Below are positions 30,842 to 43,459 of a DNA stretch of 64,000 bases, in pieces. The notes under the pieces are model-generated. The model was not told where the DNA came from and did not search any database. It saw nothing but the letters and a program-made list of their open reading frames with translations. The translations under genes were made by a program, and so were the position numbers. Positions within the stretch are counted from its first letter, which is position 1. Each line of letters starts with the position of its first letter. Origin of the DNA: a virus (lineage: Duplodnaviria; Heunggongvirae; Uroviricota; Caudoviricetes); the IMG/VR virus record IMGVR_UViG_2563366840_000001, one strand, 5' to 3'.

Positions 30842-32211
30842 TAATAATCCTCTTGCCAGTCAGCACCGGCATAGTTATCAAACCGTGAGTATTGGCCGTT
30901 AAAAGCCAATCTCACCGTGCCAATTGGGCCATTTCGTTGCTTACCGATAATTACCTCGGCAATGCCCTTCATTTCGCTATCCGGGTGATAAACTTCGTCG
31001 CGATACAGAAACATGATCAGGTCTGCGTCCTGTTCAATTGCTCCTGATTCGCGTAAATCTGAATTTACCGGTCGTTTGTCCGCGCGCTGTTCAAGCGAGC
31101 GATTAAGTTGTGACAATGCCACCACCGGTACTTGTAATTCCTTCGCCAACGCCTTCAGTGAGCGAGAAATCTCGGCAATTTCCAGCGTTCGGTTATCTTG
31201 CAGCTCGGGGACGCGCATAAGTTGCAGGTAGTCGATCATAATCATGCTCAAACCACCATTTTCTTTATAAACACGACGAGCGCGGGAACGTAGCTCTGTC
31301 GGCGTCAGGGCGCTTGAGTCATCAATAAAAATATTCTGCTTGTCCAACAGAATACCCATTGCGCCAGAAACCCGCGCCCAATCATCGTCGTTAAGTTGCC
31401 CCGTTCTAATACGAGTCTGATCAACGCGTGCAAGAGAAGCCAGTGAGCGCATCATCAGCTGGTGACTCGGCATCTCAAGGCTAAAAACCAATACGGGCTT
31501 ATCGTTACGAACTGCGGCATTTTCGACGAGATTCATCGCAAACGTGGTCTTCCCCATAGATGGGCGGGCGGCGACAATGATGAGATCGGACGGCTGAAGC
31601 CCCGCCGTCTTCTTATTGAGATCGGTAAATCCCGTATCAAGCCCCGTTACACCATCATGCGGTCGCTGAAACAACTCTTCTATGCGAGATACCGTTGCAT
31701 CGAGAATGCTGGCGATATCTTTTGGACCACTACCGCTATTTTGTCGTTTTTCAGCTATTTCAAAAACGCGGCGCTCGGCCATATCCAGCAATTCATTGCT
31801 GCCCCTGCCATCCTGCGCATATCCAGCTTCGGCTATTTCATTTGCGACGGAAATCATTTCACGAACAACCGCGCGTTCACGAACGATATCCGCATAAGCA
31901 CAAATATTTGCCGCGCTGGGCGTGTTCTTTGACATCTCCGCAAGGTACGCAAAACCACCGGCGCGTTCTAATTTACCGTTCTGTTCAAGTGCTTCAGCAA
32001 GTGTTATCAAATCAATCGGTTTGCCATGACTTAATAACCTCTCCATCTCACTGAAAATTTCACGATGAGCACTGGTATAAAAATCATCAGCAACTATACG
32101 ATCTGCAACTTCATCCCAGCGGCAGTTATCAAGCATTAAGCCACCAAGTACAGCTTGTTCTGCACTAAGGGAATTTGGCATGGATTCAAGAGGGGATGCA
32201 GACATTAGCAC
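30841..32211 (-). CDS. ban: Ban, DnaB-analog replicative helicase (456 aa)
   Basis: DnaB-family sequence (ARPSMGKTTFA Walker A) with N-terminus shorter than and diverged from E. coli DnaB, as expected for P1 Ban. Confidence 0.85.
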   Translation of the reverse strand: MLMSASPLESMPNSLSAEQAVLGGLMLDNCRWDEVADRIVADDFYTSAHREIFSEMERLLSHGKPIDLITLAEALEQNGKLERAGGFAYLAEMSKNTPSAANICAYADIVRERAVVREMISVANEIAEAGYAQDGRGSNELLDMAERRVFEIAEKRQNSGSGPKDIASILDATVSRIEELFQRPHDGVTGLDTGFTDLNKKTAGLQPSDLIIVAARPSMGKTTFAMNLVENAAVRNDKPVLVFSLEMPSHQLMMRSLASLARVDQTRIRTGQLNDDDWARVSGAMGILLDKQNIFIDDSSALTPTELRSRARRVYKENGGLSMIMIDYLQLMRVPELQDNRTLEIAEISRSLKALAKELQVPVVALSQLNRSLEQRADKRPVNSDLRESGAIEQDADLIMFLYRDEVYHPDSEMKGIAEVIIGKQRNGPIGTVRLAFNGQYSRFDNYAGADWQEDY

Positions 32212-32321
32212 TCCACCCAGGCGTGCTGAATGTCAGATATATGATTAGACTTGAGATAAATGACAGGGGATAAGTGAGATAATTATGGGAAGTACTGGGT
32301 CAACATGGGAAGAGACTGGAT

Positions 32322-32354
<33 letters not shown>

Positions 32355-32402
32355 AAGACTGGCCCGAAAAAAACAGAACTCGCACCAGCCTGATTGCAGA
32401 TA

Positions 32403-32822
32403 TTACTCCTTTTTCCCTGTATCGGCATCAGGTTCGCCATCAAACAGTTTGCCCTGCATCCGATCCAGTTCTTCTTTTCTGACCCGCTTCACCACGCTGT
32501 AAACCCACTGTAGTGAAACACCAAATTTGCGGGCCAGTTCGTGATGGTTGCGCCCGTCAAACTCCAGGAAAATTTCCCGGTCGCGCTGGCTGACCTTCCA
32601 GACCATGCCCATCGGAAAATAGACGTTTTGCCCACCCCAGACCTGCATCATGCGGTTCGCGACGGCCTGACCAATCTGGTCGGCAACTGCGGGTTCGATA
32701 TCAATAATCTCGCGGACAGTCTCAGAGGTATGCTGTGCCAGTTCCACCAACAGTTCCGGCCCTTTACTACGAAACTGATTCAGGTCGCTCATTGCTTCAC
32801 TCCCGCAGCTCTGCGCTGCCAC
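32403..32822 (-). CDS. Mor-like middle-operon transcription activator (likely start at Met 32792)
   Basis: Mor/C family pattern at C-terminus; position after GemA-like gene. Confidence 0.6.
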   Translation of the reverse strand: MAAQSCGSEAMSDLNQFRSKGPELLVELAQHTSETVREIIDIEPAVADQIGQAVANRMMQVWGGQNVYFPMGMVWKVSQRDREIFLEFDGRNHHELARKFGVSLQWVYSVVKRVRKEELDRMQGKLFDGEPDADTGKKE

Positions 32823-40244: not shown

Positions 40245-40326
40245 CGTGTTCCTGTTGGGTTATGATGTACTCTATTGGGTCTATTGTACGCACCCGAACG
40301 GGTATGTCAAATTGAGATATGTTCAA

Positions 40327-40737
40327 ATGAGTATAAAAGAGAGATTGCGCGAAGCGATGGATGCTAAGAGTCTGACAATTAAGGCATTGTCAGACTTGTC
40401 AAAAATTCCATATCGCTCACTTCAAAACTATCTGCGTGGAGAGAGAGAACCTAATGCAGAGGCTCTTGTTGCGCTAAGCACCCATTTGAACATATCAATA
40501 GATTGGCTACTTACTGGTAAAGGGGAAGCTGTTGGGGTAGAGAAAGCACAGCCAGCTAATCAGGAGCAGCATTTCAACCAGTCTGATCTGAAGTTATTGG
40601 AGCTGCTCAACCAACTGGAGCCAGAGGTGCGAAAAGAGTTGCTGCGAGGCGCTGAGGAAAAACAGCGAATGATTGATATGGAAAAACAGCTTAAGGAGCT
40701 GTCCGCAGCGTTCGAAAGATTAAAAAATACGGGTTAA
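40327..40737 (+). CDS. Prophage repressor, XRE-family HTH (136 aa from Met 40327)
   Basis: SLTIKALSDLSKIPYRSLQNYLRGEREP HTH; divergent from ner-like gene with 82-bp spacer. Confidence 0.65.
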   Translation: MSIKERLREAMDAKSLTIKALSDLSKIPYRSLQNYLRGEREPNAEALVALSTHLNISIDWLLTGKGEAVGVEKAQPANQEQHFNQSDLKLLELLNQLEPEVRKELLRGAEEKQRMIDMEKQLKELSAAFERLKNTG

Positions 40738-40772
40738 TCTGTTCCTATTAAGAACATTAGAGGTATAAGGAC

Positions 40773-41306
40773 ATGACTATGCGCAAATTATTTTTACCGT
40801 TGATATTTGTTTTATCTGGGTGTGGAGATAATACCGATCCTGCTGATACGTCCACCACAGCTAAGGAGCACGCGGTTTTTAGCGTTGAAACAGATAATCC
40901 GGTTGTAAATCGCGAATTACCGTTTATTCGCCAACAACTCCCCGGCCTGGATAAGTACGCGGACAGTTTTGAAAAAGTCGAAGTATCCGAGGATAGCGAA
41001 CGTCCGGTGACAACGGTGCAGTTTCATATTAAAGACGAAAATAATATTCCAAGTGACTACATAGCCTCTGGTCATAATTGTTATTTGTTCATATCAAATA
41101 ATGCCCACGAAGTGAAAATATCTAAATCAGCATGTCAGGCTGTTTTTTTCGATAAAACGGATGTTCCTGGTGGAGACCTGACCGTGAAACTTGATAAGGA
41201 AAAAGTTCCTATGACAGATGATGGTAAGACCCCGCGAGCAGGTTGTTTGAAAGCTTATTCACCAGAGCCAGATAATGATTATTGGACTTGTCCAAGGCAG
41301 GATTAA
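40773..41306 (+). CDS. Lipoprotein (177 aa)
   Basis: Signal peptide with lipobox LSGC; AT-rich; co-oriented with repressor. Confidence 0.65.
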   Translation: MTMRKLFLPLIFVLSGCGDNTDPADTSTTAKEHAVFSVETDNPVVNRELPFIRQQLPGLDKYADSFEKVEVSEDSERPVTTVQFHIKDENNIPSDYIASGHNCYLFISNNAHEVKISKSACQAVFFDKTDVPGGDLTVKLDKEKVPMTDDGKTPRAGCLKAYSPEPDNDYWTCPRQD

Positions 41307-41353
41307 ATGTTTAGGTGGTGCTGCAGATGCACCACCACCTTTAACTACCTCTT

Positions 41354-42148
41354 TCAAAAATTACAAATTACCAGCTCTTTCTTCGGGCTGGGTTTGCCTG
41401 TTACCTTAAGGTTGTAGCTGATATCAACCGACTGCATGTTCAGACCGTTGAATACCTGCCGCATTTCCGGGATATCGTTCACTGATATAATCATCTTCCC
41501 TTTGATCCTTCGCGCTAAATCTGCCATGTGATCATAGTTTTCCAGCCCGAACTCCACACCATAGCCTTCCGTTCCCCAGTACGGTGGGTCACAGTAGAAC
41601 AGCGTATGCGGGCGATCATATCGCTCTATGCACTGGTGCCAGTCCAGATGCTCTATCAGCGTTCTCGACAGGCGCAGGTGTGCCATCGACAGTTCTTCCT
41701 CAATACGCAGCAAATTGAAGCGCGGCGCACTGGTTGTAGAGGTACCGAATGTGTGATCGGCGACCTTGCCGCCAAATGCCTGTTTCTGCAGGTAGTAGAA
41801 CCGGGCCGCCCGCTGAATGTCGGTGAGCGTTTCTTCCGGCGTATCCTGCAACCATTTGTAAATCTGACGGCTGACCAGCGCCCATTTGAACTGGCGAATA
41901 AATTCTTCCAGATGATGCTTGACCACCCGATAGAGGTTCACCAGTTCCCCGTTGATATCGTTAATGACTTCGGTCTTGCTGGGAGTCTTTAGGAAATAGA
42001 GCGCAGCTGCCCCGCAGAACGGCTCCACATAGCAGGTATGGGCCGGAAACAATGGTAAAATATGCTTCGCCAGACGACGTTTACCGCCAATCCATGGGAC
42101 GATGGGTAAAGATTGTTCTTTCATTATCCGTAAGCCTTTTGCAATCAA
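41354..42148 (-). CDS. DNA adenine methyltransferase, Dam family (264 aa)
   Basis: Motif I EPFCGAAALYF and motif IV DPPY (YCDPPYWG); WIGGKRRL N-terminus. Confidence 0.85.
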   Translation of the reverse strand: MIAKGLRIMKEQSLPIVPWIGGKRRLAKHILPLFPAHTCYVEPFCGAAALYFLKTPSKTEVINDINGELVNLYRVVKHHLEEFIRQFKWALVSRQIYKWLQDTPEETLTDIQRAARFYYLQKQAFGGKVADHTFGTSTTSAPRFNLLRIEEELSMAHLRLSRTLIEHLDWHQCIERYDRPHTLFYCDPPYWGTEGYGVEFGLENYDHMADLARRIKGKMIISVNDIPEMRQVFNGLNMQSVDISYNLKVTGKPSPKKELVICNF

Positions 42149-42338
42149 TGAAAATATGGCAGGCTAGTCTGGTCTCGCGAGACTGACTGAACCCTGGTCG
42201 GCTCACAGTGCATACCTGTGGGTTGATGACCAGCCTGGTGTTACCGCACCGGGCTGGTCGTTCTTTCAAAGCCATCATGCGGTTCACGTCTGCATCCTCA
42301 CTATTAACGCTGTTTAAAATCCCTTTCCCCGACCATTT

Positions 42339-42722
42339 GTGATGCTGTCTCCACTACACAAGGAGACGCTCATGAAAAACCTGAAAAAATTCATTCCCCC
42401 TGTTAAAAAGCCACGTCTCAGCGGCTGGCTGCTGACCGCTGTGCTGCTGCTCGGCACCATCGGTCTGGTATCGCCCCAGCAGCTGCCGGTGGTTGTCTAC
42501 AAGCTATCACTCATCACGCTGGCGGCAGTATTGGGCTACTGGCTTGACCGTTCGCTTTTCCCCAAAGCCCGTCCCGGTCAGTACCTGAAGCATGATGACA
42601 GGCTGATGGCTGATGGTCGCTTCCCTGTCCAGACTGGCCTTCACCTGGTCTTTTCTGCTGCGCTAATCCGCCGTGCGCTGATTGTTGCTGCAGTCTGTCT
42701 GGCCGTAGCGATGGGGCTTTAA
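42339..42722 (+). CDS. Membrane protein, putative holin
   Basis: Hydrophobic segments; first gene of lysis cassette. Confidence 0.45.
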   Translation: MMLSPLHKETLMKNLKKFIPPVKKPRLSGWLLTAVLLLGTIGLVSPQQLPVVVYKLSLITLAAVLGYWLDRSLFPKARPGQYLKHDDRLMADGRFPVQTGLHLVFSAALIRRALIVAAVCLAVAMGL

Positions 42723-43459
42723 TGATGACCCTCTATATGTACTGGCCTCAGGTTGTCTGGGCCGTGCTGGTACTGCTGGGGCTGGGCATCGAACTGGCCC
42801 GCTACGGGCAGGCCCGAACGGGTAAGCACAGTTTCTGGTGGCAGCTCTTTGGTTCAGTAACGGTAGCCTGGCTGCTCTGGTGTGGCGGCTTCTTCAGTCA
42901 GGCCCGCGCTGCCCAGCCACCGCAGACCGCGCTGCAGTATCGCGACGATGTGATCCGTAATGCCCGGCTTGAATGGGGAATGTCTGCGCCGGTGGCCGAC
43001 TTCGCCGCGCAGCTGCATCAGGAAAGCGGCTGGCGACCTGATGCGGTCTCGCCGGTTGGCGCTCAGGGACTGGCGCAGTTTATGCCCACCACCGCTGACT
43101 GGATAAGTCAGCTGATGCCGGGGCTTAACAGCCGTGAACCGTTTAATCCGTCTTGGGCCATCCGGGCGCTGGTCAGCTATGACCGCTGGCTGTGGCAACG
43201 CGTCAGCGCCGTCAATGACTGCGAGCGTATGGCCATGACGCTGTCAGGCTATAACGGTGGTCTGGGCTGGGTACAGCGGGACAAACGGCTGGCCTCGCAG
43301 CAGGGGCTGGACAGCACCCGCTGGTTTGGTCATGTCGCCACGGTGAATGCCGGACGCAGCACTGCCAACTGGCGGGAGAACCGTCATTATCCGCAGCGCA
43401 TCCTGCACGAACTGGCCCCGCGTTATCTCACCTGGGGAGGCGGCAGCTGTGTGGACTAA
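42722..43459 (+). CDS. Endolysin, lytic transglycosylase (SLT domain) with N-terminal membrane anchor (245 aa)
   Basis: ESGWRPDAVSPVGAQGLAQFMP SLT catalytic motif. Confidence 0.75.
   Translation: MMTLYMYWPQVVWAVLVLLGLGIELARYGQARTGKHSFWWQLFGSVTVAWLLWCGGFFSQARAAQPPQTALQYRDDVIRNARLEWGMSAPVADFAAQLHQESGWRPDAVSPVGAQGLAQFMPTTADWISQLMPGLNSREPFNPSWAIRALVSYDRWLWQRVSAVNDCERMAMTLSGYNGGLGWVQRDKRLASQQGLDSTRWFGHVATVNAGRSTANWRENRHYPQRILHELAPRYLTWGGGSCVD

Follow-up and report, generated by a model that had tools for sequence, protein, structure and literature searches.

Several described systems resemble parts of the locus analysed here, which occupies positions 40773-42148 of a 64,000-nucleotide stretch of Caudoviricetes DNA (IMG/VR record IMGVR_UViG_2563366840_000001, hereafter the window). 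This locus, whose sequence is identical (100%) to the chromosome of Escherichia coli AW1.7 like that of the whole window, comprises an accessory lipoprotein gene, a D12-class (Dam-family) DNA adenine methylase gene on the opposite strand and, next to the methylase start, a conserved structured RNA element that is uncatalogued, having no family in Rfam 15. The closest described counterpart is the methylase M.EcoMIV (EC958_1101) of prophage Phi2 in the ST131 strain EC958. We equate it with the protein WP_000783854 because location, D12 class and assignment to prophage Phi2 agree; this protein is 84% identical in amino acids to the methylase of the window, and its gene has the same position and orientation between the repressor and holin genes of a BcepMu-like prophage, with the same element upstream. 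The EC958 prophage differs in that it has another type of repressor, no lipoprotein gene behind this repressor (slot A below) and minus-strand cargo before the holin gene (slot B below). In the EC958 lysogen, grown to mid-logarithmic phase in LB, transcription of M.EcoMIV was significantly below that of dam, no methylation motif could be assigned to the enzyme, no extra motif was present in the methylome, and no recognition site was known for homologues with more than 65% identity (PMC4659465).

The Com-Dam pair of Pseudomonas phage B3 and the com-mom operon of Mu are comparable as DNA-modification genes of transposable phages under a special post-transcriptional control, the Dam protein of B3 being 65% identical to the present methylase. 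In contrast to them, the prophage in the window has no Com zinc-finger open reading frame (ORF), its methyltransferase is not a modifier of the Mom type, and the gene is central instead of lying at the right end. Hia5, Hin1523 and Nma1821 are likewise solitary adenine methylases of Mu-like prophages, with a DPPY motif. The Hia5-type enzymes are non-specific and thought to give broad protection against restriction, and ORF48 of B3, a relative of the present methylase (65% identity), is outside the 1000 best matches of Hia5 (PMC3299994). The present methylase would therefore belong to a different subfamily, and a non-specific activity is not implied for it. In BcepMu the same zone, from the repressor gene (gp17) to the holin gene (gp21), also holds accessory genes (gp18-gp20), the first of which encodes a membrane protein and overlaps the repressor stop codon, but these three cargo genes are unrelated to those of the window and neither the methylase nor the RNA element is found there. 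The RNA element itself recalls the antisense RNAs of restriction-modification (R-M) and plasmid genes (e.g., the ctRNAs), which are short structured RNAs opposite the 5' end of a putative target gene; in contrast, its four-helix junction and its nucleotide conservation across Gamma- and Betaproteobacteria are unusual for a plain antisense RNA. Finally, Ltp of TP-J34, Llp of T5 and Cor of phi80/N15 are, like the lipoprotein of the window, small exported lipoproteins encoded by phages or prophages. No similarity of sequence or fold was found between them and this lipoprotein, whose mature domain of about 160 residues is larger than Llp or Cor; its sequence places it outside the exclusion families characterised so far.

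The 145 nt extending from the methylase start codon to the point where related prophages diverge are near-invariant in nine prophages obtained by independent routes. On the plus strand, opposite to the methylase, this region folds into a 5' hairpin and a junction of four helices, closed by a helix in which GAGA is paired to a 3' UUUC. Compared with shuffled sequences, the folding was stronger for the plus strand (z = -4.97) than for the minus strand (z = -2.28). An exact 22-mer of the element retrieved 54 viral contigs and, together with other collected loci, 39-40 distinct variants were available; the plus strand was the more stable one in 39 variants out of 39, with a consensus fold energy of -49.6 vs -29.5 kcal/mol. 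Double compensatory changes were observed for 37 of the 40 base pairs in 39 diverse sequences. In this alignment 88% of the cells are paired, vs 72% in shuffled alignments (0 of 500 shuffles reach 88%) and 37-48% when the partners are slid. G.U accounts for 20.4% of the cells and A.C for 3.7%, and the methylase-sense strand would pair in 71%. This excess of G.U over A.C indicates that the RNA strand is the plus strand.

A wider search was performed with a covariance model built from the close variants. Among 80 species-level loci, about 55 (Enterobacterales and Betaproteobacteria, methylase identity as low as about 70%) have the element adjoining the methylase, each time on the opposite strand. 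With the filters off, matches were obtained in VP882 (E = 1e-7), phiE125 (3e-6), TJ1 (1e-4) and, between 2e-3 and 4e-3, in Bise, B3 and MuM16-1; the match in B3, directly upstream of com, is weak (E = 0.0024 in 21 kb). The element is thereby shared by phages of Mu-like, lambda-like and telomere type. The element was found neither in BcepMu nor in another BcepMu-like prophage devoid of the methylase. In phiE125, VP882, MuM16-1 and many betaproteobacterial loci, the gene upstream has the same direction as the methylase and stops at the border of the element, which therefore belongs with the methylase and not with the holin operon. No Rfam 15 match was present at E<=1 in the region of the window, and among eight relatives the sole Rfam match on the element, found in one of them, was to ctRNA_pGA1 below threshold (29.5 bits for a gathering score of 45). 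A 'D12-methyl RNA motif' was not found in the papers searched and is an unverified lead. In Curvibacter phage TJ1, the RNA element is separated from the methylase by a small ORF (locus L160, 1329-1484), and in phage B3 the same position is held by the Com homologue (locus L017, 2334-2519); the RNA element and a Com-type control may thus coexist in some phages.

A near-invariant TAGGCT (CAGGCT in the window, 42162-42167) is located 16-18 nt past a TTTnCA-like hexamer and may be the -10 box of a weak promoter from which the RNA would be transcribed. Expression of the methylase is probably under the control of this putative RNA. Since by geometry the 5' leader of the methylase transcript must carry its complement, antisense control or transcriptional interference would be the simplest mechanism.

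By profile and motifs, the methylase is an orphan member of the D12/Dam family of N6-adenine methyltransferases. It matches PF02086 (D12 class; E = 1.2e-27, 97.7 bits for a cut-off of 22) and, marginally, the TIGR00571 'dam' model (117.2 bits for a cut-off of 114.85). Aligned to DpnM and EcoDam, it shows the motif order of the alpha class, with motif I (EPFCGAAALYF, the last Gly being replaced by Ala) near residue 45 and motif IV (CDPPYW) near residue 180. The start codon common to all homologues and to RefSeq is the ATG at 42124 (MKEQSLPIVPW...); the extent given in the initial annotation, 41354-42148, is valid as the longest ORF and overshoots this start by 24 nt. The neighbours of the gene encode the lipoprotein and the holin, and no nuclease-like protein is adjacent to it in the window or in any cargo variant examined, in agreement with the absence of a partner nuclease noted from the sequence earlier; no restriction enzyme or R-M match was obtained either among the cargo proteins of five variants (Pfam, PADLOC). 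The gene is present in 543 of 5426 complete E. coli genomes, and all enterobacterial BcepMu-like prophages and cargo variants examined have it at the same place and oriented the same way, whatever the immunity type. Being always present, it does not behave as cargo (a moron). Across the 80 species-level loci the protein is 67-98% identical, and further members of the family are, besides the Dam of B3 with a Com homologue ahead of it, gp27 of phiE125, the homologue in phi1026b, the enzymes of the telomere phages VP882 and phiHAP-1 and, encoded close to the end of the genome, that of the Mu-like Shewanella phage MuM16-1. Literature searches returned no functional data on the methylases of phiE125 and VP882.

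Com-type zinc-finger ORFs (C-x2-C...C-x2-C) were not found anywhere in the prophage, and the methylase is therefore not part of a Com/Mom module. A 68-aa ORF upstream of the methylase (42081-42287, minus strand) was considered as a Com-like candidate and rejected, all four bases occurring at its putative start position and a premature stop being found in relatives. We consider a lytic role of the methylase, in the self-protection of replicating phage DNA, more likely than an epigenetic one in the lysogen. The enzyme would modify the phage's own DNA during lytic growth and shield it from restriction or from MutH, being the functional counterpart of the modification genes of other Mu-like phages, which are placed beside Com or at the end of the genome. 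A GATC specificity is assumed as the default expectation.

The lipoprotein gene has a very different distribution. In the RefSeq annotation of the identical AW1.7 sequence it starts at 40779 and the protein begins MRKLFLPLIFVLSGC. The LSGC lipobox recognised in the initial annotation proved canonical (MRKLFLPLIFV-LSGC, in accordance with [LVI][ASTVI][GAS]C), with the predicted lipidation site at Cys15, invariant in 19 homologues, and Gly at +2. In the mature part, a low-confidence linker of about 20 residues precedes an alpha/beta domain with a conserved Cys101/Cys119 pair, and full-length family members also keep a C-terminal Cys pair. No Pfam family or fold match was found. The gene starts 41 bp behind the stop codon of the repressor on the same strand, this spacer is conserved in relatives, and a scan of the interval found no promoter-like or terminator-like site. 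Comparison of the GC content bore out the earlier view that the gene is AT-rich relative to the prophage: its value is 0.417 (0.35 at third codon positions, GC3), vs 0.546 (early arm) and 0.579 (late arm), with 0.445 for the repressor and 0.507 (GC3 0.62) for the methylase. It is found in only 22 of the 5426 complete E. coli genomes, its carriers including clinical, bovine and food isolates. Compared with the window, the alleles of Morganella and Serratia-type prophages are 43 and 41% identical, respectively, whereas the flanking methylase, holin, transposase, MuB-like and terminase sequences are 88-99% identical in the same prophages; in the DNA, the upstream spacer and the signal-peptide part are conserved and the mature part is not. 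Present or absent in collinear relatives, replaced by alternative cargo in the same slot and deviant in GC, this gene behaves as cargo.

The close family of the lipoprotein is limited to Enterobacterales (35 clusters among 5.8 billion). A profile search extended it to 185 representatives, most of them exported and about 150 aa long (median 156), which share the motifs P-G-L-(D/N)-K-Y and G-H-x-C...K-x-x-C and correspond to the C-terminal part of phrog_10002, a group with no assigned function. A lipobox-like start was present in 56 of the 141 members examined, others being anchored by a transmembrane helix, and one of the 141 carries two fused Ltp domains, known from Streptococcus phage TP-J34 as a superinfection-exclusion module. 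For three family members, all of the seven places looked up were directly downstream of a repressor-like helix-turn-helix (HTH) gene in BcepMu-like prophages; the most distant homologues checked keep this place, among them one (E = 3e-27) downstream of the repressor in another such prophage.

From these features, the lipoprotein is most likely an envelope-located accessory protein expressed in the lysogen. Its gene would be co-transcribed with the repressor, and the protein, once exported, would receive its lipid at Cys15 and reach the outer membrane, the domain pointing into the periplasm. There it would work at the envelope to keep out incoming phages (superinfection exclusion) or have some other role at the host interface. 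Exclusion is in our estimation the most likely function, with close to an even chance, and a host-fitness role comes next. As most relatives do without the gene, a part in lysis or in the virion is unlikely; the lipoprotein gene is not universal at this position, and neither gene of the locus has a demonstrated role of this kind.

Taken together, these data lead us to a reading in three parts: an optional lipoprotein cargo behind the repressor, a core methylase acting in the lytic cycle and an RNA regulator of the latter. As a whole we regard it as somewhat more probable than improbable. A bolder version is put forward only tentatively, as it seems to us rather less probable than its contrary: the D12 methylase and an antisense or sensor RNA of about 110 nt would form a mobile cassette, off in the lysogen and released lytically, dispersed over Gamma- and Betaproteobacteria by phages of the Mu-like, lambda-like and linear-plasmid types, while the lipoprotein would represent a new and widespread exclusion family facing the periplasm.

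Several observations weigh against the three-part reading. For the methylase homologue of phi1026b, moderate expression was measured in a lysogen (21,563 reads per kilobase per million, RPKM; PMC2920897), so that silence of the methylase in lysogens may not be general and its regulation may differ by phage. The base-contacting residues K9 and R124 of EcoDam align to Pro and Ala in the methylase (HMMER pairwise alignment), and GATC is strongly depleted in the prophage (32400-64000), with 63 sites observed vs 152 expected under a Markov model (ratio 0.42); the ratio is 0.83 in the host flank (1-32000), and among the other 4-bp palindromes only CTAG is similarly depleted in the prophage. Either the residue mismatch or the depletion could mean that the target is not GATC. 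The promoter scan found no consensus sigma-70 promoter for the RNA or for the methylase, the proposed -10 box reading CAGGCT in the window. In the wide covariation alignment the sequences were fitted to the model, and this works in favour of the structure, although independent MAFFT-based analyses agree with it. As to exclusion by the lipoprotein, it is argued from position, from analogy and from a single Ltp fusion, which is weak evidence because it is one case in 141.

Other explanations were weighed against the same data. The initial annotation proposed that both genes are conversion genes expressed in the lysogen, the lipoprotein excluding phages and the methylase serving epigenetic regulation or self-protection, which may be read as a 'vaccination' of the host chromosome. 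Both genes do lie in the accessory zone beside the repressor, the expression of the phi1026b homologue in its lysogen points the same way, and orphan phage methylases with regulatory roles are known from literature quoted in PMC5005818. For the lipoprotein, this proposal holds as an inference, in agreement with the short spacer behind the repressor, the lack of a promoter-like or terminator-like site in it, the optional carriage, the fast divergence and the low GC. For the methylase it has to be revised: encoded on the opposite strand, this gene has a conserved RNA element of its own upstream and belongs to the conserved backbone in all variants examined; moreover, the low transcription of the orthologue M.EcoMIV relative to dam in the lysogen and the absence of any extra motif in the EC958 methylome (PMC4659465) indicate that regulation by the methylase in the lysogen is probably wrong. 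As an account of both genes, we therefore consider this explanation unlikely. The same low transcription and lack of an assignable motif of M.EcoMIV (PMC4659465) could be taken to mean that the methylase is a decaying or inactive passenger. This we consider very improbable: the ORF is full-length with motifs I and IV intact, and the level of identity kept over the 80 species-level loci, together with a covarying partner RNA, points to purifying selection.

The element upstream of the methylase could also be a mere intrinsic terminator or insulator before the lysis genes, or else the sense-strand leader of the methylase mRNA. In the enterobacterial sequences the last helix is a GC-rich stem of 13-15 bp followed by GTTCTTTCA, oriented toward the holin gene, and the conservation ends right after it; a structured 5' leader is, for its part, the commoner arrangement of a cis-regulator. 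However, the U-rich 3' end is not a free terminator tail because it is paired with the upstream GAGA in the covarying closing helix, and there is no lysis operon to insulate in phiE125, VP882, MuM16-1, B3 and many betaproteobacterial loci, where the neighbour runs in the direction of the methylase. A structure on the sense strand is disfavoured by the surplus of G.U relative to A.C. These alternatives to an opposite-strand RNA are in our opinion improbable. The same low probability is given to the lipoprotein being a host-fitness or virulence factor, for example in serum resistance or in protection against envelope-acting toxins or lysozymes. Lambda Bor and similar prophage lipoproteins act as host-fitness factors, and the export, low GC and moron-like placement of the present protein, as well as the origin of its carriers, are compatible with such a role. 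Nevertheless, no similarity was found to Bor, TraT, lysozyme inhibitors or any Pfam family, the family members were behind a repressor-like HTH gene in 7 places out of 7, and the extreme allelic divergence beside conserved flanks is better suited to an arms race between phages, in line with a role in exclusion.

The wider setting of the locus is that of a BcepMu-like transposable prophage, which extends from about 32400 to past 64000 within the E. coli chromosome. Its leftward early arm contains, from the extreme left, genes for a Mor-family activator, a MuB/ExeA-like ATPase, a DDE transposase, a DUF3102 protein, an IclR-type HTH protein and a Ner-like protein, and is divergent from a rightward repressor gene of the CI type. 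To the right of the accessory zone are found the holin, SLT endolysin and Rz genes, then the terminase, a Mu-type portal and head genes, and P2-like tail genes. This arrangement of early arm, repressor and lysis, head and P2-like tail genes is that of a Bcepmuvirus-like phage, with the same gene order in BcepMu, and a relative, Escherichia phage PhiKM, is classified as Bcepmuvirus. The region 40773-42148 is thus the zone of accessory genes that separates the immunity module from the late operon in a Bcepmuvirus-type prophage, and the placement of a lipoprotein gene and an orphan methylase gene between repressor and lysis cassette, as first annotated, was confirmed, both ORFs being real (Table 1).

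Comparison of collinear prophages (E. coli, Klebsiella phage KP12, Morganella, Serratia/Klebsiella and ST131) revealed a fixed frame made of the early arm, the repressor, slot A, the opposite-strand methylase, slot B and the holin. Slot A, which holds the lipoprotein gene in the window, contains elsewhere an 88-aa minus-strand gene, nothing, or a gene for the nucleoid-associated protein NA37 with one for a 401-aa protein. The relative with the latter cargo carries a nearly identical repressor, and cargo is therefore swapped independently of the immunity type. Slot B is part of the 247 bp between the methylase start and the holin gene and is occupied in relatives by a gene for a DUF2441 protein, one for a 182-aa protein or two reverse-strand genes. 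Among these cargo proteins, the 182-aa protein is 2TM-effector-like and the 401-aa protein has a faint KwaA match; the cargo genes of relatives, located in L002 (4169-4735), L003 (4330-4878), L004 (4079-5091) and L008 (1796-4011), are possible defence or anti-defence genes.

Several small sites accompany the slots. The arms of the palindrome TGTTCCTATTAAGAACA, of which the window has one copy, are kept in relatives even with different cargo downstream; TGTTC-N7-GAACA was considered as a repeated operator and rejected, as it occurs in a single copy in the window, at or below chance expectation. The hairpin between the convergent lipoprotein and methylase genes is probably a bidirectional terminator, with weak T-tracts, and the same intergenic spot of relatives has a different sequence that also forms a hairpin. 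The motif CTATTAACGCTGTTTAAAA is duplicated before the cargo genes inserted in slot B of relatives and may be the promoter of the lysis operon; its interpretation as a shared late-promoter motif was rejected, with one occurrence in the window. An inverted repeat (17 nt, 16 of 17 complementary; 40316-40332 and 40480-40496), which could sequester the start codon of the repressor by pairing with an internal segment of its gene, is not conserved in the Morganella or C483 relatives and is probably lineage-specific or due to chance. At its left end (about 32240-32403), the prophage is inserted in an Orn/Lys/Arg decarboxylase gene adjoining melR, of which a fragment remains at 30822-32240, annotated in AW1.7 as a C-terminally truncated pseudogene; owing to this insertion, a decarboxylase gene of the acid-resistance type is probably disrupted in the strain.

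Table 1. Features of the accessory zone and its borders (positions in the window; a dot indicates a site without strand).
Feature	Position	Strand	Basis or remark
Early promoter, strong, sigma-70-like, TTGACA-16-TACAAT (11/12 matches)	40283..40310	-	Promoter scan; gene order
Operon of the early promoter: Ner-like, IclR-HTH, DUF3102, transposase, MuB-like		-	Gene order
Prophage repressor, 136 aa, CI/Cro-type HTH	40327..40737	+	Pfam HTH_3 and Phage_CI_repr; PHROG transcriptional repressors; RefSeq start
Perfect palindrome of 17 bp, TGTTCCTATTAAGAACA	40740..40756	.	Past the stop codon of the repressor, ahead of the ribosome-binding site of the lipoprotein gene
Accessory lipoprotein, 175 aa (slot A)	40779..41306	+	Alternative start 40773 (177 aa)
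GC-rich hairpin with 13-nt arms, between the convergent lipoprotein and methylase genes	41313..41340	.	
Solitary D12-class (Dam-family) DNA N6-adenine methyltransferase, 256 aa	41354..42124	-	Longest ORF 41354-42148
Conserved structured RNA element (core about 42159-42268)	42142..42272	+ (opposite methylase)	Folding, covariation, relatives
Slot B (empty in the window) and region directly upstream of the holin gene	42273..42371	+	Comparison with relatives
Motif CTATTAACGCTGTTTAAAA, with imperfect dyad and TAAAAT box, upstream of the holin gene	42301-42319	+	
Holin, first gene of the lysis/late operon	42372..42722	+	
SLT endolysin	42722-43459	+	Followed by Rz

The accessory genes of this prophage are ordinary in kind, and the linkage between the RNA and the methylase is the part that deserves follow-up. 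As the methylase family is present in about one tenth of the complete E. coli genomes, including ST131, the timing and the target of the enzyme bear on how methylomes are read and on the escape of these transposable phages from restriction. The lipoprotein family, unannotated and with 185 cluster representatives, may be a new family of exclusion proteins and is a tractable candidate in this respect. The conserved antisense-strand RNA offers a testable handle on the regulation of phage methylases and is a candidate for the RNA family databases.

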